Position numbers and translations under genes: made by a program
In this document: positions 13,550 through 54,326 of the stretch, one piece after another
Position numbering within the stretch: position 1 is the first letter of the stretch
Layout: the number at the start of each line of letters is the position of its first letter
Notes under the pieces: generated by a model
The model's input: the letters and a program-made list of their open reading frames with translations, nothing else
What the model was told of the DNA's origin: nothing
Database searches by the model: none
Assembly (NCBI GenBank): GCA_013115125.1
Contig: JABANN010000026.1
Coordinates: forward strand, 1-64,000
DNA from: Perkinsus olseni
Lineage: Eukaryota
Direction: 5' to 3'
Length of the DNA: 64,000 nucleotides

Positions 13550-13884
13550 GACAAAGCCGCCGTCTCCCGTCTTGTATCTTGTCGATAATCGCGGCGTGCG
13601 CCTCTTGCGAGTGCGCACCTTTTGTCTCGCTCGGCAATGTCGGCGATTCGAGTCGACCCAGGTTCGACTCTCGGCGACCGCAATTCTCGAGTCCAAGAAA
13701 TTCACACTTCACGCGTTGAACCATGCCTCGGCTTCTCACGCGTGCGGCTCTTTGCCGCGCACTTGGGAGCTTGGAGAACTGCGGTGGCAGAATGGTATCG
13801 GCTAGCGCCTCCCAACGATCGCCCTGTGGCATCCGACCGAGCTACGCCGTCGAAGTGTTCCTATCTTGCTTACGCCATTTGAAA

Positions 13885-15190
13885 ATGAATCCTGGTTCTG
13901 GTAGGCCATATACTTCTTCTCTCATGCCATCCAGGAAGCGAAGTCGCTCAGAGGAGATGGTGGCATCGCCGCAAGACAAGGAGAATGGTAACGGCCAGAA
14001 CGTGGAGCCAGCGAAAACCTCCAAGCCGAAGAAACGGGCGAAGGCGTCGAGAAAGTCTGCTCCGGAGACTAATAAGAACAATCTTCCCAAAGTTGTTAAT
14101 GTAGCCTATGGCGAAGTGAACAAAAATGGTGAGAAGGTGCCCATGACGGATCTCGAACGTCATAGGAAGGGGAAGGAGGACTTCACAGCGATAGCATGGA
14201 ACGTTGGTTCCCTCCGCTCTCTGCTCAACCACAAAGTTCATGAGCTTGTCGATCTGTGCAAGAAGGAACAGCCCGATGTGATTGGATTCATGGAAATCAA
14301 ACTGTCTAACGAGGACATGTGCGAGGAGTGTGACAATCTACTCCGTGAGGCGGTTGAGGATATCTTGGGGCCTGTGGAAATTGTATGGAACCACTGTACA
14401 GCCAAAAAGGGCTATTCCGGCACTGCGTTCGTGGTTCGAAAGAGTGCCGGGAAGTTCGAGAGCAAACTGGGTATCGATGGTCACGATGATCCGGAGGGCC
14501 GTACCATCACATTAGAGTTCGATGACATGGTCGCAGTACTGTGCTATGTCCCGAACTCAGGGCAGGACTTGAACAGGCTGGGCTATCGTACTGCTGGTAA
14601 GGATTGCTTTGATGCTGAGCTGGCCAAGTACTGTGAAAGCTTCGATAAGGCTACCTTGCTGCTGGGAGATCTGAACGTGGCGGACCGTGATGTGGATATT
14701 TGGAACGTCGATAAGCCGCACATTCCTAAGAGCGCTGGTACTACATAGGGGAGGAATGACAGCCGCTCATTGAGTGTCACCATCGCAACGTCTATGGGCA
14801 TGAGTACCTCGATTCCGTTTCATATGCTTACTTCGGGACAAGCAAGTTCTTTCCTCACCTCTGCTGGAGTTTTGTTTGATGTCTTCTGCAGGTACCACGA
14901 ATGAGGAGCGAGAGTCCTTCCGGGAGCACTACACGTCCAAGGGCTTCATCGATACATTTGCCGACATGCATCCAGAAGCTACCGGCTGCTTCTCCTACTG
15001 GTCTGTTCGAGCACGCAATAAGCCGAAGAATAGGGGCCTCAGGCTCGACTACGTTATGGCAGCTCCGGGCTTCCCAGCCGATAAAATTAAAGATGCGTTC
15101 ATTCTCGAGGACTTCGCTCCCCACGGTGACCATTGTCCAGTCGGTGTCACCTTTAAGAGGTCTAAGAAGCACCCGCTCAAGCGACTCTAG
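13885..15190 (+). CDS. AP endonuclease, ExoIII/APE1 (EEP) family; 2 exons (intron 14738-14891)
   Basis: IAWNVGSLR, PDVIGFMEIK, KKGYSGTA, EGRTITLEF, YVPNSG, LGDLNVA, FSYWS, GLRLDY and GDHCPV motifs, with a basic NLS-like N-terminus. The start is 13885 or 13925. Confidence 0.95.
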
Positions 15191-25619: not shown

Positions 25620-27804
25620 TCATGATAAGCGGACTGCTACCGTACGGGAATAGAGCACTTCGTGATGACCCAGCAAGAAACCTGACAGGAATGCGTAAAA
25701 GTAAGCGCTATATACAGCTCTGACCTGAGGTGGGCCCGACGCTACTCATGCTCCATTCAATGGCGCCAGTCCTCTTTAGAGTACCCAGAGCAAGTACCAC
25801 CTGCAACGAACACGCATGCACTTACGCTCTACCAATCTGTTAACACCATCTGTTCGCTCGCTTTGTCCTCTGCTCGAGACACTAAAGGCGTATGCAACAC
25901 TAGTAGTCCTCCCTTGGCCACCACCCCTGCCGCTGCCTCGACTTTCTTATGCAAACTGAGAGCCGCCACCGAATTAGAGGCAGGGATATCACAGTATTCT
26001 GATACCCCTCAGCAGAGGCAACCAGCTCCCGTCCGAGCTGACCAAATGCGACTCTTTCCCTTTTCTTGATTTCTGGATACGCGTGCAGGATGACGACGTC
26101 GAAGGAGAGCCTGGAGGCGGCCATCGCCTCGAGCTCATTCTCAATGTCGTTCCTCAGGAGTGTTGAAACCTGAGCCCCGAACGAAGCCTCGCGAGCCTTG
26201 AGCTGGGCTATCGAAAAACTCTTGATACCACAACAAGCCGCGGCGGCCAGATCCCGAGACCTTACCTTATCATCCACTTCATTGATCTTAGCATTAGCTT
26301 CAGCATACCGGACAGCTTTGACGGACTCGTCCAGCATGACCACCTCGTTCGCCGCACCCTCCTTGGCTGCTCTGATGCCCCAGCCGCCGTAGCCACAAGA
26401 GATGTCGAGAACAGTTCGGCCCTTGACAGACTGAGCAACAGCGAGGGCTAGTGGGGCTCCTCTGGGGTTCCACTCACCTGTAGCACACGTTGTCGCATAT
26501 CAGCTTCATCGAAGGGCCACATACTCCGATGAGGGACGTCCATGAGGGGTAGCTGGAAATGCGTGCCGCCCTCGATAACGTAGGCGCATTGGAGTGTGCC
26601 TTCACTGCCTCGTTCTAGTGTAGTAGCGAACTCCTGAAGCGAGGCACCAGCGAGGCATCACCTGGCGGGCTAGAATATCCCGCACTATGTCTGCTACGGA
26701 TATGGTACGTCTTAGCAGCCTATGAGAGTCAAGGTTTCGGGGCAAGCATTGGAAGGCGTTACCACTCATGGCGAGCAGGAAAGAGAGGTCCATAAGACGA
26801 ACCTTCCCATCAGCGCCATGCCGCTCCTTCCGCCAGTTCATTTTATGCACAACCACGGCCTTGGTGTCGAGCACTCTGTCACAGACTTCCTCTCGAACAA
26901 TCGAGTCCCACGGGAACTCCTCACCATATGTGTCGTACCTGTCCAGGGCGGCTGATCGACTGTCCTGTGGATGCATTAGTCACTTGAAGACGAGTATGCT
27001 GCCCCCTCCATCATCCTCAGCCACTCGTAGTAGATCGCAGGTGATGCCGGGTAGACCATCAGCCTCGGCAGCAATAAGTCGACCGCAGCGGTCCCGAGAC
27101 ATGCTGGGCAGCTGTAAACTGCGTGCCACCGCCCGATGGGCTCGACGTCGGAGTAGTTTCTGACAATATACTATGCAGGGAAGGGCTCCAACCAGCATCA
27201 TCACACGGAGACACGTATGGAGTCAGAAGGCTTACGAAAGTGGAGCCTAGCAAGATAGTAGCTTACTGTTATATACTCCTCCATAGTAGAGGAGGATGCC
27301 TGCTGCTGTGGTGGTGTACTCCTTGTTAGCACTCGTATTGGTATAGAGCTTGAACGGTTGAGGATACCCAACCCCAGGTCCACGCCATCAGGCGCTAGCA
27401 GCCTAACTATGGAGCCTGGAGGGAGGGGGTTCAACTCCTTTATGTTCTCTATCTGAACACCAGCACCACATCTTCAATATGGGCATTGACAGAGCAAGCA
27501 GGAAAGAACGGCTTTTCACTACAATAGTGTCACTTGAGATAATCCTGCTGCTACCACAGCTTTGGAACGGAGCGAGACAACGACTCAGGGGACCAGCACC
27601 GTGGTATCGAGGCGGCTAATGTACCTCAGGCCAGTAGACCCAGGGATGTCCTGACTCGGTGAGGCGTTGGGGCATGGGGTAGCTTGACTTCACCGAATTC
27701 TTGCGTACCCGGGCGATGGGTAGAGGTGAAGAGAGTGAGGCTAGACAGCGACGTGCCGCTGCGTACGGTGATGGAGAAGTATGTAGCACAGCGGGTAGTA
27801 TCAT
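25620..27804 (-). CDS. RlmI-like (PUA + class I SAM) RNA methyltransferase, possibly organellar, multi-exon
   Basis: GHPWVY, PGSIVRLLAPDGVDLGLG, RLIAAEADGLPGITCD, GRTVLDISCGYGGWGIRAAKEGA...AEANAKIN and FDVVILHAYP motifs, with an Arg/Ser-rich transit-like N-terminus. Confidence 0.8.
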
Positions 27805-35522: not shown

Positions 35523-36783
35523 ATGGCCGATGAAGCTGAATGGAAGCGCCTGGCGGTAGCCCCGCCGCGTGGCGGCCGGCTGCCGATCGTACCCGAAATT
35601 AAGGTCAAGGACGATGAGAGCATTAATGCGAATCCTCAGCTCAAGTGGGATGAGCGAAGGTGGGGTGCTGCTACTGCTGCTGTTGCCTGTATCGATGTTG
35701 AACGGATTCCTGTAGTTACCCGGTAGGATTGAAGGCTACGCCGCACCCTAAGGTTGGGGGGAGCTCTCACTTAGATGAGAAAATCGACAAGATGGTGCCG
35801 AGGTGGGTGGGATGGTTTCTAGTGGCGTACACTACTGCGTTCATGCTTTTCATCGTGCTTTTCAGAGTCGCCCAACTGCTGAGTCAAGGGTGATGTGATT
35901 AAGGTATCGCAGCATGGCTGAGCATGATACGATCCCTTCGGCAGAGAGTCTTTGCGTTCATCATAGGTGGAGTATCGAACAGCCTACAGCCTACAGCCAT
36001 TCGCCTTCGATGAGATGCTCTCCTCCTGCCTTTTTCTGACACTTCTAGCTTCCACAAGTTGCCTGGTATCAGTAGGACCGGATAAGGTCGTGAGGGATCC
36101 TCTACCTCTGCCGACGTCAACTGGAGTGACGCAGAAGAAGCCAATGGCACCGACGGTAGGGACCGAGCGGGGCTTATGTAGTGATCCAGCATGCTGGATC
36201 ATAACGCTGCGGCCCGGGAATACCGATACGCTATCTAGCGCATCGTATAGGGTTAATTCATTTTCAGATTGATGGTGTGAGGGTAGACCTAGGGAAGCCT
36301 GTGGATTACGGTGCTCTCATCGGCCCTCCGAGGACGGTGCAAGCGGACCCACCCCCGCCTCCCAGCGTCTTCGAGAAGCCCGACCTATCGTGGAGTCCAA
36401 GGTGGTAGTAGTACGGTCGCCCCACCAGTAGCTGACTTATCGATCATCAGACTTAATACGACCATTGCTACATACAGCATCACTGCTGCAGTGCCTGTGA
36501 GGTCACGAGGCCTCGAGGGATGGCTGCCGAAGAGGGGAAGGTCAGGAGCGGGCCTGTAGAAGCTGTCCTGTCGCTGCGGTCCCTCATGCTGGGAAGGGCA
36601 AATCCTTCCATTCCCTAGCCTACGCCGTCGAACTGCTGCCAGCGACCGCCGCCGTGGATCACCATTCGAATGACTCAAATGAAGCATACCAGAATCGGGA
36701 ATGTCGATTCGGATGGGAAGGCTTCAGGAGATTGTTGCGTAACAGGGGCCGTTGAAGCCCTCAGGTCGAATTCTCAGGCTTGA
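35523..36783 (+). CDS. Hypothetical Pro-rich multi-exon protein
   Basis: Exons read MADEAEWKRLAVAPPRGGRLPIVPEIKVKDD, LKATPHPKVGG, VEYRTAYSLQPFAFDE and VDLGKPVDYGALIGPPRTVQADPPPPP. The probable end is SNSQA*. Confidence 0.5.
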
Positions 36784-36787
36784 ATCA

Positions 36788-39700
36788 ATGTTTTTCCCCA
36801 TTGGGAGTGTTGCTAATAGTACACAGCATCCATATTGCTCTATGCCTGGTGTAACCTTACCCCTCTCGAGCGCATTGATGGCGTTTCAGTCTGACTCGTC
36901 TGCAAGAGGAGACCCCATCCACCTTCACTTCAACCACAGTAGAAGAAGACACCTCTACCGAGAGGAAAGTAAATGCCCTGTGATGCCGTATGCTAGTAGA
37001 TTGCTGCTCGTAACTTCAGCTGAAGAAGATCATCGCCGACCACGACTAGCCAATCGTGATGCATGTGGTGCGGAGCTTTACTCAAGTCGTCATGTGCTGC
37101 ACTGTCTTGTGTTGCGTCAATGATCGGCCCGGTCATGGAACTTCGACCCCTCGGCCTTACTCAGGTGGACATCTTGAAGAGGGACTGGTGGCCGGCGGGA
37201 GTTACCGTGCTTCTGTCAGCCATTACCCCCTTGCCTGTATGTATGTCATTTCGTTATTGCTCATCCTACTACGGAGTGTGTCTCCGAGGACTACCACGAT
37301 GATGCTGAGGATTGCCCGGCCTCGGGCGACGGGATCCCTCTTGGAGGCTCCTGATGATGAGTACGAAGATATCAAGAATCATATAAAAGCTACAAGGGCC
37401 TTACTCGGGCCCGACCTGAAGCATACCGTGGGATATTGGGGCGACTGGATGTAAGAGTTGCCCGCCTTGCTGTTGGTACCGGGTTCGTTTCCCCCGGAAA
37501 GCATTATCTAATCCAGGAATCGTTTCTGCGACGGGAGATATTGGACTGTGACCTGTGGGCAAGTAGCGTTCAAGCACACTAATATGGCGGCTGATATAAG
37601 GAAGAAGCTGGCAGTTGAAGTGAAGGCGGCAACAAAGATGTGAGCACTCAGTGGGATTCCAACCTTTTCTGCATCTTGCACGCTTCGACTTTGGATGCAA
37701 TTATTACTAAATCCTGGCAGGGTGGACGATTTGACGACTCAAGCAGAAACTTTATCGAAGGCGGATCTCCAACCAATGACGGACTTGACGGACATCGAAC
37801 GACAGTGAGGAAGGCTTCGATCGGCGTAGGGGCGCCGTAGTAGTGCTTGTCGTGTTTAGGAAGGGAGAGAAGGGCATGATGGAGCAGGCGGAGGCTGTGA
37901 TGAAGGTCCTGGCCCTACTCCGGCCTGTTGTGGTGAGTTCGGTGCCCTTTACATTCTCACTTCATCGCGGGTTGGGGGGTTTCGCATGATGATGTTGCCT
38001 CCTCCCTTGGGTGATTGACGCTGTTGCGTCAGGTGGAAACTATGACCGGTGAAGAGAGGAATATGAAGGATGTGGAACAGTAGCTTGCTGCTGTTGCTGT
38101 TGACGGGTTGCTACTTATGCCATCCTCAGGGATATCAGGAAGACCGTCTCGCAGGACAAGGAGATGTACGACGAACTCTTCGATGCTGTAGGTCTGCCAG
38201 TCTGGGGTTGGTCCTTAGCGGGGTTAAACAATTTTGCAATCTTCGGAATTCATCTCTATCGACTATCTTGGAGCTGGGTGTTCTGTGAAGTGTCGGTGTT
38301 CAGGATGCGAAAAAGTACGCAAAGATGGCAGAAGAGAAGGGCAAGACGCTGCTGGCTGATACTAAGAAAGTTTACGTCAACCTTATGAAGGTGAGTGGGT
38401 CAGGGAAGCTATCCTCCCTACTGGGCAGAGCTGATGATGATTCACTTCGTTGTTAGTCGATCGCGGTGTTAATCAAGAAGGTTTACAGACTACAAAGAGC
38501 TCTCATCGTCTTGACGGCGCGGCACGCGGTCCACAGTACTCGTGTGTTGGACGAGGTGAGCAGGACGAGCCCGACGACGTGGATGGTGTATTAATCTACC
38601 GTCCTATCAGTTGCAGCGGACGACTCATCTCTTTATAAGGAGGACGGACCGTGCCGACACTTCACTGAGTCGCTTCGTAACAGCAGGCCCTGAGAGGAGG
38701 AAGGCGATCAAGTCGTAAGTCTAACGAGGGTTGCTCTTCGCGGGTTACCACTGGCCGACGATTCTCTGCCTGCCCACTGGCTTTTACTTCTCCGGTGGTA
38801 GCGGTGTCCGAGGGTGGACTCTCATCGTGTTGATGGTGAAGGCGTCATTCTCTTTGGTAGGGTTATATCGCAGCTGGCAGAGTACCAACAGAATGTCGCG
38901 CTGAAAAGATTCCAGCGAAGAGCGGACAAAATGGCCGATAAGGTAAGAGCGTGAAAGTATCTTTCTATTCTGCATGGAAGATGCGAAAGAGGTCAAGTTG
39001 AGAGCGATCATATCTTTCAGACGAAGCGAGAAGTGCATGAAGCTGGCTCGAATGCCGTCCGAGCGTTGAAGCTTGATGATAAGGATCTCACAGGACGCCA
39101 GAAGAAGAGCGATAGGATCTTCAATACTCGGCTCCGAAATCTCCAGCGGAGGAGACAAACTATCGTGCGAGAAACCTTACGGGTAGACCCGCCGGCGATA
39201 TGCTTGAAATGGGGATAATCGTTTTCCCGGAACGCAATTGGTATGAGAATAGGCTGAAGTTGTACACCAAGGGAGCAGCGGAGAAGACCGTTTGCACGTT
39301 TTCGCTTAACAGTGTCTTCCCTCAGGACTTCGGGGTGGCTGATCGTCGCTTCACCGACGAGGCCGGCTCTGATGCCGTCACCAAGTTCCCTTTGGTCAAC
39401 GACCTCCTCCGAGCAGCCGAGCATCAAGCGCTCGCTGTGGATGAGCTCAGGTAACTCTACACGGCTTCTATCGCGCAAGACTACCTTACACTATCGAGAA
39501 GACCGCCGCTAAGGCGGATCTGCACGCATACGCATGTTTTTTCCGAACAACAGTATACAGCTGAGAGTCCTTATGCTTCCCTCTCCCTGCTTACACGGCG
39601 CGGAATCGTGGCCTTTGCAGCGGCGAAGTGAAGGGAATGATCCAAGGGGCGGATGGCCCTCACAAGCTCCTTGGGGAGTCCTTGAAGCAATCTGAGAGGA

Positions 39701-42700
39701 ATATGGAAGCAAAGATCGATCAGGAGACGGCAAGCATTGAGAAAGATGTAAGAAGGCCCAGGTTCGAATCCTGGTGAGAGCCTTTCTATGACTCAGACAT
39801 CTCGAGAGGCAGCCCAGGTGAACTCTGAGTTGAAGGATCTTGAAATGACCGCACAGAACTCGGCAGGCCGGGAGGTAGGACGGCGGGCATGCGGAATTTC
39901 GTGACGCGTGACGAGCGGCCTCGCCGACTCGAGAGTGTTGATGAGGACTTGAGATGCTGTATATCTTTCGAGTTGGTATCTTCCTAGCATCAACCTCGTT
40001 GTTATTTTTCCAGCGTCTCCTGGGCATGGAGAAGGTTCGAGACATCGAGCGTCAGCAGGCGGTAATCGAAGAGGCAGAGAAGACGCAACTCAACGACGCG
40101 GATACCGCTCGAGGGCGGAGCGAAGCAGAAATTAATTCGGATATAAGTCTGGCGTCCAGTCAAGCAGAGTGAGCTCGGCGCCCGCAGTAGCGGTGATGAT
40201 GGTACCACTGTGTTGCTGTCGTCAGTGGTAAGCTTGGGAATATGGCTGAGAACGTGAAATCACGGGAGGAGGCAGAGGGGCGGCTGATTGGATCACAGCA
40301 GGCCGACGCTGTCGAACGGCAGGGGAAGATGAAACGTGAGCTTGGCGGGAATGCTACTCCGGGGCACCCAACGGAGACAGCGCCGCATGCCTTTACTCGT
40401 CGTGACTGCGCAGCGATGGCGAGTGGGGTGGATTAATAGGAGTTTCAAAGCCCTCCGAATTGAGACCGATGTTGTTCTGTTGCAGAGGCCCTCTCGGAAG
40501 GCCAGACTCAGCGGTTGTCGGCCTTGGATGCCAACATGGACGAGTTTGCCGACACCAACAAGGAAGAGTACCGCCTCTTGCAAGATCAGCTCAAGCTGGA
40601 GGAGGATGATGAGGAGAAGGGTGGGTTGGCACAGTGGACGGCGACGACCAGTCGCTCTAGTCCACGCTTGGGAGTGGCTACGTTCGGCAGTCTGTTCAGG
40701 GTTGATGACCTCTTCGTCCTTACTGTCGTTGTTGTTGTTGCAGGCGTGAACTCAACCTCAGCTCTGGTGCGTGGCACTGCCGATGCTGTGCACACCTCCC
40801 AGCATCAAATGGAGGCTCTCCACGACGAGGTGGATACGGCCAATGGCAAGGCTAAGCAGGGTCTCGATAATGCTATCAAGGACCTCGAGCACTTGTCGAG
40901 GTTGGAGCAGTGGCAGGAGCCTCGTTTCGACGCGTTCCTCTCTTAGTGGAGGTACAGCGGACATGGCTCATCTGAAGGCCGATGAGACGCGGGACCTCAC
41001 CAACTCTGTGCAGGAAGTGTCCGCGGCAGCACACAAGGACGTCTCCGAGGCTCGATCCACTACCAAGGTGGGTTTCCCTCTTGTGTAGGGCTTCTAGCGG
41101 CGTTGGTGTCAGGGTCGACTGCGGGAAGCTCTTAGTGAGATCCACGCGAAGATCGGGGCGATGCTGGGCAATGAGCAGGAGATGGACAACGCCCTCATCG
41201 CACTGTCGTCTGATGCGGCTAAGGTGAGGGATGAGAGGAAACCTGCTCCTCTACTGTGCCACGAAAACTTTAGTATAAAGACAAAGTATACAAAGTATAC
41301 TTTGTGCGACCAAGAGCAGAGAGGGCGTGGTCACCGTTAGTATCGCGGCTGCGCGCTGGGAATAGGCGATTCGTGCCCAGGCTACGCTAGGTCGCACAGG
41401 AGCCCTCTGCCAAATTCAAACTCTGTGAAAGTTTGCATTTTCCGTTTATCAGAGGCTCTCAACGCGTGGGCTATGGTAGCGGTTTTCAGGCCCAAACCCG
41501 TGCTGGGGAGATGGCGCACAAGAAGGCTGCCGAGCATGATCAGATTCTTGCTTACCTTTCAAATAGCTACCGGCAGAATCGTGACGACATGTCCAAGGTA
41601 AATGGTATGATAGTTAGAGCTTTAGTCGTTCATTAAAGAGGTATCTGGTTCCATTTTACGAGAATGTATTTCTTTTGCAGCTTCCAGCGGAGGTTGAGAC
41701 GAAAGGCAAGAAGCAGCTAAATGAGGCCAGGAGGATGCTGAGTGATGAGATGAAGACCCGCAACCAGGCGATAGCCACCGCGGCCGCCCAGCACATTGTA
41801 GCCCTAGGGAGTCTGGTAAGTTTAGGGTGGTATTGAGGACGACTGCAAGGGTGGGCTATCAGATGAAGTCGGTGATGGACATGCTTATGAAGGGCCAGAC
41901 GCAGGAGGATGCCAAGAGGCGCCTTCTAGTGGACGCAGAGAGCAAGTAAATAGTCCAGGGCGGGTGGGACGAGTAGCAACACAGGGGTGATGGTGCAGGT
42001 TAGCTGACCTCGAACGCAGCAAGATGAAACTGGAGTCCCTCATGGGTGCCTCTGGGAATGGTACATCAGAGATGACGAGCTCTGTTGAAAGGGCCAAGGG
42101 AGCGCTTGAGTAGGTTAACTGTTCTTAACTGTTAGGTCGAGGTTCCTGTCCCTCAGTCACACTCATGTCGACCTACTGCAGCGTCGTGAGGAGATGGACC
42201 AGAGGTTGAAGAAAGGGCTTGTGTTTCTGGACGATCATATCAATAAGGCACACGACTTCCTAGTCTATCACATAAGGAACCTCGAGAAGGCACTGAAGGT
42301 GAGCATGTGAGCAGCATCCCTTCGCGGCTCGATCTTCGGATGGCAGATAATGATAGACCAATTCCGCAAGATGCTGAACGGAGAGGCAGTCACAGCGACG
42401 AAGGCTGAGCAAGAGGACGGCGTTCGTACGGTAAGGAGCAGCAGGGCCTTGACTGTTAGGGGGCAGAATTGAGCCTTGCGTTGTGGAACAGCGCTCACTC
42501 TCGGGGAGGGGATTTCTATCGTCCGGCCTCTCCTCTCCCGGTTCGCTTTCATCGTAAGTCAGCTAATATGATCTTGTTCGTGCTGTGTCCTCGATTCACT
42601 GATCCGCCTCTTCTTGAATGCAGTGATGGAGAGACGACAAGCGCTCCGTGCTGTTCTCTGGTCAAATACACGGAACCATACAGTCCGGCATGATAGATCA

Positions 42701-45073
42701 TAGGCATCATAGGTTGGACAGGCATCTCTATTCAATCGTACGAGTCCTGTTGAAAATATATTCCTCCTGCGTAGAGTAGCCCTCGTGAGGTGGGAGTGTT
42801 CGACCCTACCTGAGATCTGCTTCTGTGGATTGACTTCAGATCAGCTGATAGTCGGAGAGCTCCACAGCCACTGCGTTGGGCGCTCACGGCCGTTGCTGTC
42901 CTGTAGGCACACAAACTGGAGGACGTTGAGGAGGGTCTCGAGAAGGATATGAAGAGAAATAAGTTCAGGCTGGAGAATATACTCAATGTAAGAAGCTGGC
43001 TCGAGGGGGGTCCTCATTCTGGTCGAATGGAACTTCCGGTTGAACCTGCCCGCTATTTCGTGGAATGTGTTTGTAGAACACTGCATCAGTAGTTAAGGAG
43101 AGGTAATAGAGAAAGTCGAGTATCGAGAGAATTGGAGTTAACAACGGGACGCAAGTAACCCACTTAGGTTGATAAGAAGTCGACCATGAACTTTGTCACG
43201 CTGCTGAGCAACCTCACCGTACAAGCTCAGTAAGAGGGAAGGGTGTCTGCCTGCGGGTATGGGCCATGGCGCATCAGGAGTCTCGGCCTGTCGGGGGATG
43301 AGATGAAGAGCTACATCGAGGAGCAGCTGGCTAGTTTATCGGAGGATACGACAGGGGAGATGGGCACTATAGGGGAGGAAGTTGAGAACGATATGACTGG
43401 TTTTAGGTAGGAATGAGGATTCACAGTTGATTCTCTTTAGTAAAGGGTGTGCTATGTTGTCGTTATCAAGAAGTAAGCCTTACGAGTTCGTCGATAGAAT
43501 TGATTCGTCCTAGAGCTGACGCGTGTAGTGAGGTTACGTTGACGCAGACCCAAACCCCATTGGCTCATCTTCCTCCTCTTAGGGCTACAGCCACTGCTGA
43601 TCGGGATAAAGCCAAGAAGGAGATTGCGGTGAGCCTGATAGGAGCACTTCATCTCGCACACCGTGAATCGATCAGAAAAACGATGACGTGCTGAGGCATG
43701 GGGAGGTTGGAGTGTATGGCCAGCTTGATGGCTTCGGTCAGAAGGTCTCGAGCGAGGCAACGGAAGTTGGCAGCACTATGGGGTAAGAATCTTGCAATCT
43801 TGCTCTTCCTCAACGGTCAAGATACCTCTCACGACCAGATACAACACGAAGGCATTGCGTAATCTCCAGCATTTGGCTGAGGGCCAAGTCGAGACATCAA
43901 GCAATGACCTGAAGGCCCTCATCCACACCGTCTCGTAAGGCGGCATGTCGCATCACTATTGAGACGCTTATAGAGCACCCTTATTTCAGTGCTACTAAGG
44001 ACTCAGTGCTGCAGGAGATGGCCGATAGTCACGGGGCTGACATGAGTGCATTGGGGCGAGTGGAAGACGTTGTTGCCGTGGTCGACTCTCTCACTAAGGC
44101 CGCCTTCGATGAGGTGAGGGCCGCCTCTACGGGCTTCGATAGTATTTATGATGTTATCAGATTCAACAGCATATCGGCCGAAGCCGCAGGGAATTCCGTG
44201 AGCTGGACCAGATGCTCGACACGCTCAGCTCCAGTAGGGCCTTGGGAGGCGACAGTTCTTAAGCATTGTAATGGAGTTTATACTACTGCTTCTCTACCCT
44301 TCGAGCGTCCTCACCGGGAGGTGAATTCCCGGAAATATGGTATGAGTAGTTCGCAGTGATAACGAAGGTGCATCTCGTGGTGCATCGATCCATGGGTGGT
44401 GACGGTGCTCACTATGCAGGTACTAACGCATCAACCGCATCCCTGACCAAGGACGTGGAGGAAGACATAATGAAGTCTCAGAAGTAGGCTTCCCTTCACG
44501 GTGGTCGCGGTAGACTGAGTGCTGCAGGTTCATGGACGGCATACGGCCGATATTGGGCCAGATGAAAGACGATGCTGCTGGGTATGAGAAGAAAGATAGA
44601 GACCTTACAGCTGAGTTCATGTGAGCACAGTTGATACCATAACTTCCGATATTCTCCCTGTGTCGTAGGTCTAAGAGACAGGGGATAGTGAAAACGGTAA
44701 GTGATATTGAGAAGGAGGGTAATGAAGAGAGAGCTAAGGTTTGGAAGGACACTATGAAGTGAGCCGATTACGCCTCCTCACTGACACGCTGTCAGCGAGT
44801 CCAGGCTCGCCGGAATTCTTCGGCGGTTGTGGCTGGTGCGGTAGGGATCTCGAACGTCCCTACCATCTCGAGGTTGCACTATGTGTTTAGTATGCGTGGT
44901 CTCTCTCGCACAGGGGGGCATCGGTGGATTTAATGTTGTCATCGATAACCTTGGCGTTCTGATTCCCGAGCGGAGCGTAGCACCTTCCATGCTGTGTCTT
45001 TCTTTGTAGAGAGCTCGGAGAAAAGAACGCAGAATTCCAAAGAATTGTCTCCGAAGCACGCGGGCAAACGTAG
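36788..45073 (+). CDS. Giant coiled-coil protein A (unknown family), dozens of short exons
   Basis: N-terminal GYWGDW|NRFCDGRYWTVTCGQVAF is followed by continuous E/K/A/R/L-rich helical exons. The last exon reads ELGEKNAEFQRIVSEARGQT*. The start is uncertain. Confidence 0.75.
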
Positions 45074-45324
45074 CTTCGAGAATAGCGTCCCTGAGGTCTA
45101 CTTGCCCCATAGTAGAGCAGCTGGTCCTACAACGACATGACGACATCCAATGATATCGTTGTTGCCATGAATAGGGGTTGAGTACTGCTGACAGGATGGC
45201 TCGGAGCGCTTCGATTCGCTGCCGCTGCTCCTTGGTAGGGTGGGGCGCTACTGCTCGCCCTAGTGCTGCCTCTTAGCCTCGATGCAGCTATTACCATTAA
45301 CTTCATTTTCAAATTGTATAAGTC

Positions 45325-48300
45325 ATGAGAAGCCGCCGAAGAGCACCCTTATGGGTCGCTCTAGCGGTCCTCGTCCTCGGCACTCGATGCGTCGACCTGC
45401 CACGACCATCAGCAGCAGCGGCAGCCTACCCTGGGTCGTCGGTGCCAGGGCACAATGAGAGCCCGCTGGTGAATATGACAGCCGAGGAGGTTACCGCCCT
45501 TCCAGTACCTGTACTGGTATCTCTTACGGAGGGAGTATGGCATAGCCTCACTCCTGCTCAAGTGTCGAGGTTACCAGCACGCACTCTGCATTTGATACCA
45601 GTACAAGCTGTTACACTGGATACACTCACCAGCTACCCTCCGAGGACGTTCAAGCACAGCCCACGACCAACTGAGGAGATGATTGCTAATCAACCCTCCA
45701 TCAACGACCAGCAGCGGATACTGTCCAGTCTGAACTCTGATGCTTCCATCAGTCCAGAGGCCCTCCTGCAGGAAGGGGAGGGGCGAGCTCGGTATATGCA
45801 TGCAGGTCCAGCGAGGGGCTATTGGAGTGACTGGACGTACGAATGCTGCTGCTTCGCTCCGCCGTTATGGTGACGTTTAATCTCAGCAACTGGTACTGTG
45901 ATAAGTACTACTGGTGGCAATGGTGCGGCGAGGTCGCCTTCGTGAGAACTAAGGCACTTGCGGAAAGCATCAAGAAGATGTCTGCTAGAGTGAAGAAGGC
46001 AGCGACACAGTGAGTGCCTTTACCGAAAATCGAACCCACCACCTTTCGATATTCGCTCGCACTGGATATTTGCCGTCGTTCCTCAGGCTTGAGAGCCTAG
46101 ATGCCCAGATCGATGGCTTCCGGTTGAACGAGAGCCTCAGGCTCATCGACCCCACTGGAGAGTAGGCCTTCGGTCAACTGTCGTTGTAATACCCGCCCAG
46201 GCACGACGGATTGACTCCGAGAGCAGCATCCTTGTATGAGGCAGTACAGGTGGAACAACCGGCCGTGGTGAGTTAAGAGAGTCTTTCTGCGTGATGTAGA
46301 TGGTCTCTTGATCAGGAAAGCGCATTCAAGGAGAAGTACCCTGAGCTGCATGAATTAGAGGAGTGGGTTGGGTTTCCGATCGTCGATGCGCTCGAATCTG
46401 TTCGACTGGACTGTTGTCTGTTTTTAGCGCTATCAAAGTACAGGTTGATGCGTCGAAGGACATGATGGGAGAGCAGTTCACCAAAGTATGTGAATCTTGC
46501 TCTCTTAGCTCACCTCACGTTTCCTCAATAGAGTTCCGAAGAAGCGAGTGGGAACATCGAGAGATTGGCCAAGCACTTGCTGGAACAGACCGAAGAGACG
46601 GATAAGAATCTACAAAAAGTGAGGCCCGGCGCGGCGATCGTCATAGCTCAGGGTTCTAGTGACGTCGTTTGTTGGGGTGATGAGGCATTGTGACTGCCTT
46701 CAATTGGATATCCATAATCTAACAAACGCTCAAGTGCTCAGTGGGCGATAGAAGGTTGATTAGAGTCTCAGACCATCCTGTTCGTCACTCGGCCCGAAGT
46801 CGTTTCGATAGCGTATTGAGGTATAAGTGCTACAAAATAAGTATCATTATCGCAGTTAGTGGTAGAGCAAGGCAGTTGATGATAATGACGAGTGGGTACT
46901 ACGCGTATATAAGGGAGTACTTAACGATGCTGTAAGGTGATGGTACTCGCCCCCGCTCGTAAATGCCGATGGTTATTACTGGACACTAGCAAAGGGACAA
47001 ATTCAACAACATCCGTTCGTTGTGCTTTCTTCTTTTCCACTCGCCTGATTCTGCACGGTTGAGTGCTACAGGAGTTCAGATTCGTTGGTGAGCTCCCTTC
47101 CTCGGGAAGCCCTAGGCAGTATACATATACTGCGGAGTCTCGCTCTTGAATGCCGCCCCGTTGAAGTAGAGCGGTGGTCAAATCCGTACGACCCTTAGGA
47201 TGTGCTCTCTCCCCCTACTAATGAATTCATCCATTGCGTGTATTCATTTACTCCTAGTAGTGCTGGGGCTCCACTCGTCGTGCCTTGGAATGCTGTTGGA
47301 TTTGTACTCTCTTGCAGTCAGTAGGCAAGTTGAGCAAGGCAGCTATGAGGGTGCTGAGGAAAGTAGCAAGAGGGAGCTCGAGATCTCTAAGGAGGGTTCA
47401 AAAGGACAACGACAGGGTGAGAGGACGGGGACTCACTTTTGTTCCGTACGACTGGTCTGGTCGAGTGGATATGCTCTCGTATTGTCCATCCTACAGTCGG
47501 CGGTTCAACCCCTGGTTCTGTTGTTGTGAACAGCGGCGCTTCCCATAACTTTCTTCAGGCGTGCTAGGACTTCCTGTCTCTTCGTCCTAGGTTGCTAGCA
47601 GGAGCAGTCGCCTCATCGACGACGCCGCGAATATCATAGCGAAGGTGAATAGGATGATGGCCAGTGCCGGGCCTAGAGAGAAGCATCTGCTGATGTACAC
47701 TCCTGTTGTGATATCAAATGGAGAGTGCCATCATGCAGGGCCATGGTGGGGAAGTTGAGGGAGAGGCTGGTACAGGAGCAGGCGCGGCAGCAGAGGCGGA
47801 TCCGGCCATACGAACGGAAGGTAGCAGTGAGCACTCGAGGGCTTAGCTGGAAAGTATGCGGCGCGCTGTCAGGAGGATAGGGCGTTGGATAGGGAGAGGG
47901 GAAAAATCGGTGGTGAAATGAAGAGAGACATGCTGGCTTTGGACGAAGCCGCTGGGGACTTCGCCAAGAGGGTCCGTCGGAGATTGTCTAAGATAGGGAC
48001 TGAGAAGGCTGTGCTTGAACGCACAGGGAGACAGGTAGTGGAGTTGGGATCGTGGAGCACAGTGGAGCCACTGGAACTAAGCAGGACCTGGCCCGAGAGA
48101 ATCGACGTCTGGCCGACCGGCTGCGGTCCGACGCAGCAAGGGCGGAGTCCGCTAGCAGAAGGGCTGTGAATGCTGAAGAGATGCTTGAACGGCAGCTGGC
48201 AGCCAATGAGTGAGTGCCATGGATTCGTCGCTTTGTCAGCGCTGAGGTTGTCTGTCCTCTTCATGGTCGCGCCGTCTATTCTGCTACTGCCAACCCTCGT

Positions 48301-51300
48301 GCATGGGAGAGCCTTCCGTTCAGGAAGGACATGAAGGATCGTAAGCAGTTGGTAGAGGCTGAGCTGCAGCAGGCAGAATCCAGGATCAAAACAGCTGACA
48401 ACCTTGTGGAGAGCAGACTCGTGTCGTCCACTGATAGGATGCAGAGGGGGGTTCGAAGCACTCCATTTTACTACCGCGCTCTCACGTGCCTCTACTAGTT
48501 ACTGGGCGAGTCCGAGCTTCTTAACACCGACTTGAGGGAGGAGGTGGGGGAAGAAGAGCGTAGGGCTTCCAAGAGGGTGCGGATGATCTCATCTTGGTCG
48601 TGGCTCGAGCACCCCTTCCTCTGCTTGTTCAGGATATGTACTTCAATGGCCGGATCGGCGAACTAGCGAAGCAATCCGCCATCGAGAGGGGGGAGGAGGC
48701 GAAAGAAGTGGCTGGAGCTGAGCAAAGCCTCGCGGCTGAGGAGAGCCAGCTGGATCGTGATATTGCCTCAGCGGGGCAGAAACAGGGGTAGGATCGGAGC
48801 TTGGCATGACGAGGCTGCTCACTTGTAGATGATCTCGAATCTCAGGAGTCGAGTCCGTGGCTTCCATGATCACAGTAAAGGGGAAGTGGATCATGAGGCT
48901 CGTGCCATCGAGGATGAGGGGGAAGATGAGGCCTCGCGACTGGCTAGAGTCATGGGTAGGTAATTAGCTGAAGTGACCTTCGGCCGGAGAAGGGGCTGGT
49001 GTAGAACGGCAATCCTGTTGTGATTGCCGCTCTCAGATTCGCTCACAGCGACTGAGCATGCACTGATGAGTTCGATGGGAGAGGACATGAAAGGCATGAC
49101 AGACTCGGGAAGGGAGGAGTTTATGCGGCTTAGGGAGAGTGTTGATAATGCATACGCGGACTCGGAAGATGGTGAGTGCTCCGGGCTATGGTGTCGCTAT
49201 AGTGCTGCTGGTCGCAGGTATGTCCGGGTTCGGCGGGGTTATCAGAACGATCGGTGGAGGATTGCAATCTTCTATCGACGGTCAAAGGGCAATGAGGGAG
49301 GGTTTGCAAGGAACGATAGGCAACCTCGACAGGGAAGTAGACAATGGCAACGCTGCCATCCGGGGTCTTAGCAGGTGAGGACCAGCGGACAAGGCTGCTT
49401 GAATGATACTCGCATGTCCTCAGTGAAAGCTCTGTTGACTTGAAGCACCAATCAGCAGAGTTCAACAAGAAGGGGGTGGACGCCGTGAGAAGTGCTGATG
49501 AGCTCCTAGCTAACAGCATTGACGGAACTAAGGTGGCCATGAAGGTAGTAGGCTTCGTTAGTGTTTCGTCTACGATGTGAATTGAGGATGTTGTGGTATT
49601 GCGATACCTCTTTAAGTGAGCACACTCGAGTCCCTAGTGCAGTTTTTTATAGGAGTGTGGGGCGTATTTGCATGGCTACTGTGCGTTTAGAGATGATGTG
49701 AGAACCTGATCTTTTGATTTGGTGAATCGACACACGAGGACCTTTAACCTTGTGCTGTACTTTCAGGATCGGCAGAGGGATCGGATGGCAGACCTCAGAG
49801 GGATGCTCGGTGACCTGAGCGATACCAAAGGGGGCATATCAGCCATCAATGACGAGACACACGGAGTGCTGTCCAAGGTGAGCGATGCCGCACTGCTGAC
49901 CTGAGCTGAGGTACTAACCTTCAGGTCCGTGGGGAGATGGGTGAGTACAAGCAGCGATTGATAGGAGAGAGTAATAAGTTGGATGCTTTCCTGGCCAATT
50001 CAGAAGGACATGAAGATCAGACAGCTCTCGAGGTCGAGTCGGATGCAGCTGTGGCACTGTGATTTCAGAGGTTCTTCAGGCTACGCACAGCTTCGAGCGA
50101 GAGCAGCTGGCCAGCATAGCAAGGGCAAGGCAACTCTTGGTCAAGGAGATGAGGCACGCTGAGCAGGGCACCTCGGAGAAGGACGTGCAACGAGCGAAAG
50201 AGCTGAAGGCTAGGGTGGGATGCCTTCACCACTGCGGAGCTGCTTGTGACTAGCGTAACCATCAGGTGGTCGAGATTGACAGTATGCTAACCGCTGGTGA
50301 TCGGAGGGGCGTAAAGAACAGGGCGGCACTTGCAGGCGTTGATCATATGTAAGGGGCTCAACGGGTCGACTAGTTTGTCGAAGAGGCCTCGCAAAAACGA
50401 CTATAGCAAATGGCAATAATAATAGCAATGCTGAATAGCAATTCAGCATCACTGCCTGCCCCGTTCACTGTTCGTCCGCTGTTCAGTGGTAATGTTCTGC
50501 GTGACCGAGCCAGTTCCATTCACGAGCTTGGCCTCCAAGAGATGCAGGACGGCAAGGATGAGGATGAAGCGGTCCATAAGATGCGGAGGGACCTAATGTG
50601 AGGTTTCATACTCAGTCCTTGACGAAGCCGGTCTCGCTTGTAGGCAGCAGTTGGCACACTACAGTATCGAGATAAAGAATACTCGAGGTTCCCTAGACCG
50701 TGGAGTGCAGGCTTTGGATAGTGGGCTCCGAGAGAAGACGACGGATATGCGGAACATTCTGAAGATCGGGAAAGAAGGCCTTTCGGTGAGCTGGAGGCTG
50801 CACTGAGCCCCGCGGCAATTGCTCGTTTCAGCGCGTTATCGGAGTCTTTGCTACTATCCTGCTCAGTGCGGCCAACGCTGAGCTGAGGCATATCCTCAGT
50901 AGCAACATGTCCCAGGTAAGGAGGGATTGTGATGGTCTTGATGATAGTGGCTGTTGTGTCAGGAGGAAAAGATTCGAGCCGTTCTCAAGCTGTTCGAGGA
51001 TGGCCAGGGGCGCTTCGGTCACGAGTTTGCGGCGACGGAGGAGGTACGTCATCACCCGTACGGCTGGTCTCTTGATTTAGCTTCACCTCAGGAGCGCCAC
51101 ACTGCTGCCACCAACCTTGCACACGCTCTTGATAGCATCATCAAGCAGGCGGGGTAGGGCTGTTCGCCTGGCTCTGCTCGTGTAACGTGTTCTCGACAGG
51201 GCACTGGGGTTGACCGGGGACGAGATGCATGACTTCGTCCAGCGAGAGCTCGAGAAGGAGGCAGGAGTTACGGCTGAGGAGTTCGACAAGCTCAAGGCGC

Positions 51301-52988
51301 GGCTTGGCGGGGACATCACTAGATTCCAGTGGGGACACACTCATCATCGCTCAATGGGTCGTAGTATGGCGTGAGGGATAATGCTCGCTAAGGACGTTAC
51401 TCTTGGTGCCGTGTTGGGTCGAGCCTTCCCTTCTCGGGGCTCCTTCGTTCCCACACGCCTGCGATATATCCGAGCCAACTTAGGAGAGTAATCATTGTTC
51501 GGACTGCTTCTCATACCTGACCTTCCTGTGTCCCTAAAATCCTAGGCTGGTGTAATGCAGTACCCCTTAGCGCACACTTCGCGTCTGGAAGTACTTTGCT
51601 TGCAATTAACGAGGTGTGCCAATAGTGGGCTCATGCCTTCCCATCTGGCTTGCTCTGCGTCTTCCCCGCTATGATGTTGCTCCTTCGTCAGGGAGATGCT
51701 TGCAAACGAAAAGTCCACGGCCATCGACCTGTTGAAGGCAGGTTATTATCCTCAGCGGGCCGAGCATGAAGCCTTTCACTATTCAGGAGCAGCAAGTGGG
51801 CGAGGCACTCCGAGGCTCCAGCATTGATGATGGCCTGGGTGACTTCGGTAATGCACTGATGCAGGCAGCTCTCATGGACGGTGGTCAACTCGGGTGAGAA
51901 GGGACTGGAAGTCGCCCCACTGATCAGCTGTAAGCTTGTCAGGTACAATGCTCTGGCCACTGGTCGGTACATCACGGATGCCCGATCAACGGGAGGAGTC
52001 TTCGCCCGCGAGGTTCGAGGCCTGGCTCACATGACTCAGTAAGGGTACGGACCTTGACTACGAGACGAGCAGCATGCGTGTGACGCGATCTACGTGTTGA
52101 ACCGCGCCCTGTGCTGCTGTGATCTCGCGAGAATTCGGGAACATCTACATTGGAGGCCGTCTCTGTTTATGAGAGAATTCGTCGTCGCGACACTGGGGAA
52201 AGGATCACTGCTGTATCATCTCAGTGCGATGGACGAGAAGTTGATGGGAGACATAGCAGCACAGAATGGGGCCAACCTAGAGGAAGCGGCTCGGGTAGAG
52301 CACGCCCAAGCAGCCTTCACGTCTTTGGCAGAGGGCGCAATGCAGGAGGTGGGCGCTGGCCTAGCAAAGGGAGCACGCTGACTCCTGATCGAACAGATAC
52401 AGAGTGAGATGAACCGTACAAGGAATGCCATCGACGGGCTTAGGGGCATTGGGGGCTCCAGCGAGCAAGGTGAGCACACAGCCCCCAGGCAGCGGCTGTA
52501 ACACTGATGTGTCTTAGTTAAGAATGAATTGTCGGATATTGCCAAGAGAACGGCTTCCAGCGGGAGGGAGTTGGACAGGTGACGACCTGAGTGGTTTGTC
52601 GATGGCGCGTCGGCATTTTGTGATCGACACAGGTTGACAACTTCTTCTGATCCTGTTTTTGAAGAGATGAGGAAGGAGATCGGTGCATATCAGAGAGGGC
52701 AGCGGGAAACTAAGAGATCTCAACTGTGAGCTAGCCTCTCCCTCCACCATCCCCTATCCGGTCCCCTCAGGAAGGAGAGGAAGAGTATCCAGCAGCGTCT
52801 TGCGGCAGTCGACTCCCGATTGAAGAAGGCCCGAGGCGAGCTGTGGTCTCGAGTGCAAGGGTGGGTAGCACTCGCGAAGGGAGCGCTTTCAGTAGTGTTA
52901 TCCTCTCAGGAACATTGCCAAGGATGTTCAGGCATATCAACAATCGTTTGCTGAGGATCGAGAGGAGTTCAGTCGGAAGGGAGCGTGA
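45325..52988 (+). CDS. Giant coiled-coil protein B with signal peptide; paralog of A
   Basis: Signal-like start MRSRRRAPLWVALAVLVLGTRC, then GYWSDW|NWYCDKYYWWQWCGEVAF and helical exons through NIAKDVQAYQQSFAEDREEFSRKGA*. Confidence 0.8.
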
Positions 52989-53559
52989 TGATGATCATAG
53001 GCATGCTGCGGGGCTATTTAAGTGTCCGAATGGACTTGTTGTTATATACTCTAGTTGTTGTTTTACCAGTGAGGACAGTTCGGTTAAAATTCGGGCGCCC
53101 AAGGTGAAACAATCAGACAAGAGAGCGCGACTCATAGATGGAACACTAAATACCGCTGTGCGCTGTGTTATCCGGCGTGTTCATATATGCCCATTGCGAG
53201 CTGGGTTTATAGCACTGTATCCTAATGCGCATCGAACCCCTTCTGCCTCTGGGTGTGCGCATTGCTCGAGGCACTCGGTAGCTGTGCGGTCTGAGGCCGA
53301 GCCGATAAGGCTGCTCCGGAGGAGAGCACTGGGATGATCATGATTCTCCAAGAGGCCTGCCAGAGATGTTTTGCTGGACCATGCATGCTCTGCTCACCTA
53401 CCACGTGAGAGATGAGCAATTAGCCAATCTCAAAGAGAAAATTATCCCTGGCGGAATGCTGACGCCGCACAAACCCCTCGCCTTTCCGAACGAATCATTC
53501 TCGAGCATAGCCATGTGCTCACGTTTTCCGTATCCCCCGCAGGCACGTCCAACATCCTT

Positions 53560-54326
53560 ATGATTGCCAATCATTTCTCCCGCGTAATCGTCGTGGCATT
53601 AGTGCTGGTGCCATCGATCGTCTACTGCTCGCTGCGCCTGAACCCCGATCCTCGCCTTATCGATGCCTCCAAGCTCGAGTACCGCCTGGCCACACCAAGG
53701 GATGTTCTGATACACCCGCTATCGCATCCCGGCGATTCTGGAGTATTCGTGGCAGTGGACCCCAAGACTAAGGTAAGTGTAGTGGAATTTATGGTACGAG
53801 CACGCTTTTGAAAGATAAGGACTCCAGGTCGTACTGGGAACTCTCGAGTTCGGTGTCGCCAACAACACCGGTGGAAGTTACCATCTCGTATTCATTCCTG
53901 ATGTTTTCGTACAGGAGGGCTACAGGGGCCAGGGGATAGGCTCAGAGTTGTACAAGCGCTTTATCGAATACGTAAGCCATTGGGGATAACCACGGCATGC
54001 TAGTAGGAGCATCGGTCATTTGGCATATTGATGATCAGGTCGAGAACGTGAGCCCTGAAGTTAATTATATTTGGATGAAGGTGTTTCGTGGTAACGAGGG
54101 CGGTAACTTGGCGCCACTAAAGGCAGGGTTCCAGTTTGAAGGTAAGTGCTGCAGATGACCAGAGCCTCCTAAAGACGCTATTTCGGTAGATCATGGAGGA
54201 GAGTTCATCCACTACTTTTACGAACTCCCCGGTCACTTCGAAGACGGACCCAAGAAGCCTTACAATGGTCCACTTCCCGTCCTTCCTGAAGTTGTTGCTG
54301 AGCTGCTCCAACCGGCCGAACATTGA
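53560..54326 (+). CDS. GNAT-family acetyltransferase with N-terminal signal/TM segment; 4 exons
   Basis: Starts MIANHFSRVIVVALVLVPSIVYC and contains motif A IPDVFVQEGYRGQGIGSELYKRFIEY and IWMKVFRGNEG...KAGFQFE. Confidence 0.85.

Follow-up and report, generated by a model that had tools for sequence, protein, structure and literature searches.

How are two long, neighbouring genes of Perkinsus olseni related to each other, and what kind of protein do they encode? The question is raised by a stretch of 64,000 nucleotides (nt) from contig JABANN010000026.1 (assembly GCA_013115125.1, positions 1 to 64,000; the window hereafter), in which an initial annotation, made from the letters and their open reading frames, had described a tandem pair of giant coiled-coil genes at 36788-52988. 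The two genes, here called A and B, are arranged head to tail with A first, and their coding regions were modelled as follows:

37239..45073, + strand: coding region of gene A, 38 exons, 1313 amino acids (aa).
45325..52988, + strand: coding region of gene B, 38 exons, 1418 aa.

The products are large, and the word giant overstated their size. Judged from their sequences, A and B are ancient tandem paralogues.

The comparison was aided by several database proteins. P0001 (FOZ63_029608), a partial hypothetical protein of P. olseni that matches exon 1 of B at 78%, is the N-terminal part of B, and through it P0002 was found, a 1293-aa protein deposited as “coiled coil protein, putative” of Perkinsus marinus ATCC 50983, which is the B orthologue (53% identical, 687/1292). 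A search with an exon of A returned two partial P. olseni proteins, P0003 (FOZ62_017503) and P0004 (FOZ63_030713), at 98% and 93%; together with P0008 they are parts of A, with 75-100% identity per exon. The matches that carry a species name are all to Perkinsus, an alveolate, which agrees with an origin of the window in P. olseni or a close relative. The initial annotation had held that A and B are homologous from end to end in spite of lacking obvious DNA identity, and had named the lack of an alignment after correct splicing as the result that would speak against it. No DNA identity was found (best blastn E 0.22), and the spliced products align significantly. P0002 matches A by phmmer with E 2.4e-32, residues 42-218 aligning with 61-242 and residues 274-1285 with 258-1270, and the fragments give these values: P0001 against A gives E 3.5e-8, P0003 against B E 1.4e-7 and P0004 against B E 0.019 (phmmer E-values are scaled to a library size Z = 1.84e9). 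The first models of A and B reached a Smith-Waterman score of 472, where 100 shuffles scored 100 +/- 13.6 and the reversed B sequence scored 140. In a MAFFT alignment including the orthologues, A and B are identical at 19.5% of positions (248/1271), and orthologues at 50-53%.

The gene structures tell the same story. All 37 introns of A pair with the 37 introns of B and always in equal phase, 29 of them in the same alignment column and eight within 7 columns, whereas random placement paired 0.3 introns on average and four at most in 5000 trials. Thirty of the 36 internal exons are identical in nt length and the other six differ by multiples of three; within the equal-length exons only 189 of 1036 residues (18.2%) are identical. 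The models of the two genes were made independently, A without information from B and vice versa. The significant end-to-end alignment and the shared intron positions are both what tandem paralogues are expected to show. The arrangement is also old. P0005 (3332 aa), from a third, ~50% divergent species, fuses an upstream gene, the A orthologue and the B orthologue in that order, so the tandem predates the split of three ~50% divergent lineages; the species of P0005-P0008 were assigned from similarity only.

Transcription and splicing of both genes were observed directly. Run X1, labelled only “RNA?”, contains 36% of the words sampled from 40000-49999, and its contigs on 36000-53999 are 99+% identical to the window, with 15 listed joints that skip 39-186 nt, all of them GT..AG. 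These spliced contigs establish that X1 is RNA-derived and that A and B are both transcribed and spliced. Introns are kept in several contigs (45837-45886, 47050-47317 and 44759-44947), which means that part of the RNA is unspliced. Models were obtained by exon-chaining dynamic programming that scored exons by codon log-odds and splice sites by matrices and gave RNA joints a bonus, under the guidance of ungapped tblastn of Perkinsus protein fragments, and were then curated manually; the changes made by hand concerned three stretches of retained intron, a false micro-exon and two exons that had been missed. Gene A is based on six RNA joints, the dynamic-programming model and the P. olseni-like fragments P0008, P0004 and P0003, mapping at 75-100% identity, and gene B on nine RNA joints and on P0001 and P0002, which are colinear across 45325-52979. 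The listed joints thus display 15 of the 74 introns directly, and nine further joints exist beyond those listed. The eight peptides quoted in the initial annotation were all recovered on the + strand, no more than 3 nt away from the coordinates given there. With a G+C content of ~52-55% and numerous short open frames, the region has the look of an intron-rich eukaryote.

The 3' ends of the two models are matched by database proteins, and the last introns of A and B are equal in position and phase (phase 2):

45010..45073, + strand: last exon of A with its stop codon; P0003 residues 506-526 map at 86% identity.
52910..52988, + strand: last exon of B with its stop codon; P0002 residues 1270-1292 map at 78% identity.

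Two introns of B call for comment:

46619..47317, + strand: intron 7 of B, 699 nt, the longest in the pair (median intron 49 nt).
51738-51786, + strand: assumed GC-AG intron of B, the sole choice that gives the P. marinus reading (..LK/EQ.VGEALR.., the slash marking the joint).

Intron 7 encloses two doubtful exons (46772-46798 and 46866-46931) that are present in P0001 and absent from P0002 and from gene A. RNA contig 4 is colinear over 47050-47415, and the intron lies within the bins of highest RNA depth; the doubtful frames may represent alternative exons or an artefact of annotation. The intron at 51738-51786 is probably of the GC-AG type, the choice also giving B exons 30 and 31 the lengths of their counterparts in A (46 and 107 nt). 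In gene A, a 15-nt micro-exon at 42775-42789 was dropped, as both P0003 and P0004 are without it.

The 5' end of gene A, which the initial annotation had set at 36788, had to be moved downstream:

37218..37219, + strand: AG acceptor for spliced-leader trans-splicing of gene A; the body of the mRNA starts at ~37220.

Before 37218, an RNA contig has a loose end of nine letters that do not match the window there, CTTGGCTCA, and the + strand upstream contains no copy of this 9-mer. Combined with the genomic AG, the 9-mer is identical to the 3' end of PmaSL1, ACCGTAGCCATCTTGGCTCAAG, the spliced leader of Perkinsus, as given in a passage of PMC3101222. From this match, trans-splicing of the gene A mRNA takes place at 37218/37220, 36788 lies outside the mRNA, and the first ATG is the one at 37239, leaving a 5' untranslated region of only 19 nt. 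The stop codon of A and the ATG of B are separated by 251 nt (45074-45324), and RNA depth is continuous across the bin (3.5). With spliced leaders being added in trans in this lineage, a single primary transcript might carry both A and B; a spliced-leader junction of B is not among the listed RNA loose ends.

Most of each protein is a rod that follows a short head and has a nearly constant length. The rod of A has 1204 aa and that of B 1209, and the counts for the B part of P0005 and for the P. marinus B orthologue are 1205 and 1203. With lengths kept at 18% identity, the rod strongly resists insertions and deletions. The pattern of hydrophobic positions is likewise held in register between A and B, with a phi of 0.47 at shift 0 and of at most 0.22 at shifts from -7 to +7. 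A ~1200-residue helix free of insertions and deletions, with its register kept at 18% identity, points to a strict constraint on length or register.

The initial annotation had called these rods coiled coils, a description of which the helical part stands and the canonical heptad part does not. AlphaFold2 (AF2) models of P0008 (N-terminus of A) and P0003 (C-terminus of A) consist entirely of helix, without strands, the helices being 57-150 residues long, and the rod of A contains only seven Pro in 1200 aa. Continuous helices, few prolines and an amphipathic seam, the marks of a long α-helical rod, are thus all present, the first of them as predicted in low-confidence models. The hydrophobic spectrum peaks at 3.601-3.635 residues in all five rods, with a normalised power of 26-38 against a shuffled maximum of 10.6, and the main peak is accompanied by aliased harmonics; at 3.498 the power of the A rod is only 5.0, under the shuffled maximum. 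Mean autocorrelation of the rods is +0.16 at lag 7, +0.10 at lag 14, +0.02 at lag 21 and -0.01 at lag 28, and it reaches +0.19 at lag 11, +0.19 at lag 18 and +0.18 at lag 29, lag 36 also being positive. A canonical left-handed heptad coiled coil (period 3.5) was rejected on account of this period and of the values near zero at lags 21 and 28. The hydrophobic spacing read from the sequences is instead a mixture of heptads and hendecads (7+11, 7+11+11), which would give nearly straight helices in place of a supercoiled heptad coil. The phase of the seam is steady over stretches of several hundred residues. Internal sequence repeats were not detected in the rods, the top self-scores being 63-71 against a null maximum of 67-69.

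Conserved islands stand out beyond the head, namely LGL[ST]GDEM, a Gly-rich G..GYN block, in which G1109, G1113, Y1114 and N1115 of A are invariant, and a late H/NGA...RVE motif:

43278..43406, + strand: exon 29 of A with the LGLSGDEM block; orthologue identity 65% and paralogue identity 30% over 40 columns.
51200..51328, + strand: exon 29 of B with the LGLTGDEM block; 129 nt, the length of exon 29 of A.
43676..44113, + strand: exons 31-33 of A with the Gly-rich G..GYN and HGADM...RVEDV blocks, placed by mapping of P0003.

The N-terminal parts of the two proteins comprise a hydrophobic stretch, an extension found in B, and a head shared by both:

37239..37286, + strand: hydrophobic, signal-like N-terminus of A, MYVISLLLILLRSVSP, read from the sequence.
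45325..45390, + strand: predicted signal peptide of B, MRSRRRAPLWVALAVLVLGTRC, read by eye, with a positive n-region, a hydrophobic core and a small c-region.
45391..45816, + strand: B-specific N-terminal extension, ~140 aa, Pro-rich, with LTPAQVSRLP-type motifs; A is without it.
37431..37639, + strand: head of A; GYWGDW ends exon 1, a phase-2 intron follows at 37451-37516, and exon 2 holds C-x8-C, CGQVAF and the start of the rod.
45817..46009, + strand: head of B; GYWSDW, a predicted phase-2 intron at 45837-45886, then exon 2 with C-x8-C and CGEVAF.

Both heads follow the pattern GYWxDW, phase-2 intron, N..CD..YW...CG.VAF..T, and the Cys/Trp head that the initial annotation had proposed was recovered: residues G65, Y66, W67, D69, W70, C75, C84, G85, A88, F89 and T92 of A are invariant across five full-length sequences. 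The only cysteines of the mature chains are C75 and C84 in A and C175 and C184 in B, and all are invariant. The joint of the A head intron (37450/37517) was seen in RNA. The B head intron is retained in contig 3, the sole listed contig that covers it, and we infer it from homology and from the spliced reading in P0001 and P0002. The head has a superficial echo of the thrombospondin type-1 repeat, in which WxxW is followed by CSxTCG and which occurs in apicomplexan adhesins, as WGDW or WSDW is followed here by TCG or WCG. That repeat has six Cys instead of two, no β-strand layer is predicted for the A/B head, and Pfam TSP_1 gave no match at E <= 1.

A signal peptide had been attributed to gene B. 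The N-terminus of B does look classical by eye (MRSRRR, a 13-residue hydrophobic core and TRC) and is conserved in P0001 and P0006, and the N-terminus of A is hydrophobic and signal-like too; the annotated start of P0008 coincides with that of A at MYVISLLLILLRSVSP. The extension that follows in B contains repeated L-T/S-P-x-Q-V/L-S-x-L-P-like motifs and an N-M-T/S sequon, is found in three of the four B sequences seen, and gave no Pfam match.

Relatives outside this group were sought by several routes. An exhaustive phmmer search with P0001 against 1.84e9 representatives returned four proteins at E <= 0.001, all Perkinsus-like parts of A or B; it covered the N-terminal 389 aa of B, and the remaining rod was searched through a 42-aa exon in a word-indexed library. 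In agreement with the initial annotation, which had recognised no family, no Pfam family reached its cut-off in seven proteins (P0001-P0006 and P0008), the best score being 16.1 bits against a cut-off of 27, and phmmer of P0002 against the PDB sequences gave no chain at E <= 1. The one PDB match of a profile search (A4) was a helical protein of artificial design, scoring 27 bits. Foldseek with the low-confidence model of P0008 gave nothing at E <= 0.001, only generic long-helix bundles with a template-modelling score (TM) of at most 0.32, and these matches were dismissed as evidence on account of their E-values above 0.001 and the confidence of the model. The ESM Atlas held no usable match for P0002 or for residues 40-240 of P0008, and head patterns run over metagenome contigs matched 368 stretches, none of them a relative. 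Titles and abstracts of the literature on Perkinsus coiled-coil proteins, proteome, secretome or cell wall and hypnospores did not reveal the family, and the word “coiled” is absent from passages of PMC7053492 and PMC2868825; supplements to these works might list the proteins. Within the searches made, the sequences point to a lineage-restricted, uncharacterised family limited to Perkinsus-like sequences.

What might such proteins do? The likeliest explanation, which we hold tentatively, is that A and B form an ancient tandem pair encoding perkinsid-restricted structural rod proteins of the secretory pathway that assemble as rods of fixed length. An N-terminal signal, either cleavable or simply hydrophobic, would direct the chains into the secretory pathway, where the aromatic head (GYWxDW...C-x8-CG.VAF), stabilised by a disulfide, may nucleate or cap the assembly. 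The uninterrupted helical rods of ~1200 residues would then pack laterally along their hydrophobic seam, with their registers aligned, into homo-oligomers, into A/B hetero-oligomers or into both kinds. The product would be a rod of fixed length, at most ~180 nm if fully extended, that could build or space an extracellular matrix or that of an organelle lumen. We infer secretion, oligomerisation, the disulfide and a structural or ruler role from sequence features. The trichocyst-matrix or granule-lattice proteins of ciliates, which are secreted helical structural proteins of extrusive organelles and form paralogous families, resemble A and B as helical structural paralogues of alveolates. They differ in being small processed precursors, no sequence similarity to them was detected, and Perkinsus is not known to have extrusomes of this type.

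Several observations weigh against this picture of secreted rods. The RNA coverage is shallow, and its contigs keep several introns. Along the rod, the hydrophobic seam changes phase at several places. The AF2 models are of low confidence, with a mean predicted local distance difference test (pLDDT) of 52.6 and 52.1 and a predicted template-modelling score (pTM) of 0.27 and 0.22 for P0008 and P0003, respectively, and a pLDDT below 50 in the head; their helices are broken at linkers of 4-9 residues, so that the rod may fold back rather than extend. Secretion was judged by eye, and the N-terminus of A has no positive n-region. Finally, A and B resemble each other in local charge, their profiles being positively correlated (r 0.25-0.55). 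This gives no sign of complementarity between them; the two look like equivalent subunits, not charge-complementary ones.

A sharper version of this explanation, which takes up the possible heterodimer of the initial annotation and is in our view rather doubtful, is that A and B are obligate partners in a parallel, in-register heteromer (AB or A2B2) whose heads are joined by inter-chain disulfides in the manner of fibrinogen or laminin. Such a partnership would fit the preservation of both copies in the same order in the third species (P0005), the nearly equal rods (1204 and 1209 aa) with 30 of 36 exons of equal length, the common hydrophobic register, the two invariant Cys in each head and the presence of contigs covering both genes in one RNA run. 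Separate homo-oligomers of the same design, however, would keep length and register equally well, the charge profiles are similar rather than complementary, and the 140-aa N-terminal extension is found in B only. The chains of fibrinogen (alpha, beta and gamma) and of the laminin long arm are paralogous members of secreted multi-chain coiled coils bounded by Cys pairs; their rods are heptad-based, of 110-600 residues and flanked by globular domains, and the fibrinogen genes are clustered. The likeness to A and B is one of analogy and lies in the paralogous chains, the signal peptides, the in-register helical rods and the paired Cys at the end of the rod. A and B differ in having a rod of ~1200 residues with a period of 3.6, a single N-terminal C-x8-C and no globular domain, and neither Pfam nor PDB gave a match that would relate their sequences to fibrinogen or laminin.

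A more specific form of the secreted-rod explanation, which we consider unlikely as it stands, takes A and B to be the two chains of a perkinsid-specific, disulfide-capped, essentially straight (18/29-periodic, non-supercoiled) secreted rod whose length serves as a ruler for the lattice of a wall or organelle, measuring at most ~180 nm. A ruler role would explain why rod length is kept within ~6 residues and 30 of 36 exons are equal while more than 80% of the residues have changed.

Less likely than a secreted rod, and improbable in our judgement, is a cytoskeletal role in the pellicle, flagellar root or apical complex, in which A and B would form non-heptad filaments of the SF-assemblin type and their N-terminal hydrophobic stretches would not be signals. 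SF-assemblin and beta-giardin are cytosolic proteins of ~250-300 aa with a 29-residue repeat, present in alveolates, and A and B share with them a non-heptad helical rod, the period lying near 29/8 = 3.625 and the autocorrelation at lag 29 being 0.18. The N-terminus of A has no basic residues, and the public annotation says only “coiled coil protein, putative”, both of which would suit a cytosolic protein. On the other side stand the signal-like N-termini, in particular the MRSRRR, 13-residue hydrophobic core and TRC of B conserved in P0001 and P0006, and the Cys/Trp head, the two Cys of which, being the only ones, are typical of an oxidising compartment; a rod of ~1200 aa is moreover far longer than SF-assemblins, and Pfam gave no match to SF-assemblin or any other cytoskeletal family. 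Also ranked below the secreted rod, and very improbable, is a secreted amphipathic-helix protein that binds lipid or membrane in the way of apolipoproteins or alpha-pore formers with the Trp-rich head as interfacial anchor, since the period of ~3.6 of an undistorted amphipathic helix, the Trp/Tyr-rich head and weak Foldseek rows for the ClyA, AhlC and XaxB toxins and ApoB100 (E > 0.001, TM <= 0.32, of little weight) are opposed by the lack of proline-punctuated 11/22-mer repeats and of internal sequence repeats, by helices of 57-150 residues, by the absence of a Pfam apolipoprotein or toxin match, and by an extreme intolerance of insertions and deletions over 1200 residues that would be unexpected in a surface-binding protein.

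Regarding the surroundings of the pair, frames at 36000-36400 on the + strand, such as IDGVRVDLGKPVDYGALI, correspond to the N-terminal portion of P0005 that lies outside the rod and belong to the upstream neighbour gene. Elsewhere in the window there are a LicD-family open reading frame (E 5.8e-8), an open reading frame of the endonuclease/exonuclease/phosphatase family (E 5.6e-13), a small methyltransferase domain and, nearby, a PUA-like domain, the coordinates of which are given jointly:

11903-13708 (- strand), 13720-14745 (+ strand), 25903-26499 (- strand) and 27204-27473 (- strand): other genes of the window.

Rfam and tRNA scans of the window gave no hits. An RNA contig at 42660 ends in AGATCGGAAGAGC, which we take to be sequencing-adapter sequence, an artefact of the run and not biology.

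On the whole, the initial observation is confirmed with corrections and its interpretation is supported in part. The general kind of protein found here, a long helical rod, is known; what is new is an uncharacterised, lineage-restricted family with unusual features. The public models of A and B are automated, partial or mis-spliced, being fragmentary, fused (P0005) or interrupted by retained introns, and the names seen record neither function nor family nor paralogy. The A/B pair amounts to a natural experiment on a ~1200-residue helix with a rare 3.6-residue period, which makes it worth solving structurally. The genus Perkinsus, which includes major parasites of oysters and clams, diverged close to the base of the dinoflagellate and apicomplexan radiation; in this lineage, a conserved, expressed pair of genes for probably secretory rod proteins, with no relatives found elsewhere, could serve as a specific marker and is a candidate lineage-specific structural element of the wall, of the vacuole or of the matrix of a zoospore organelle.

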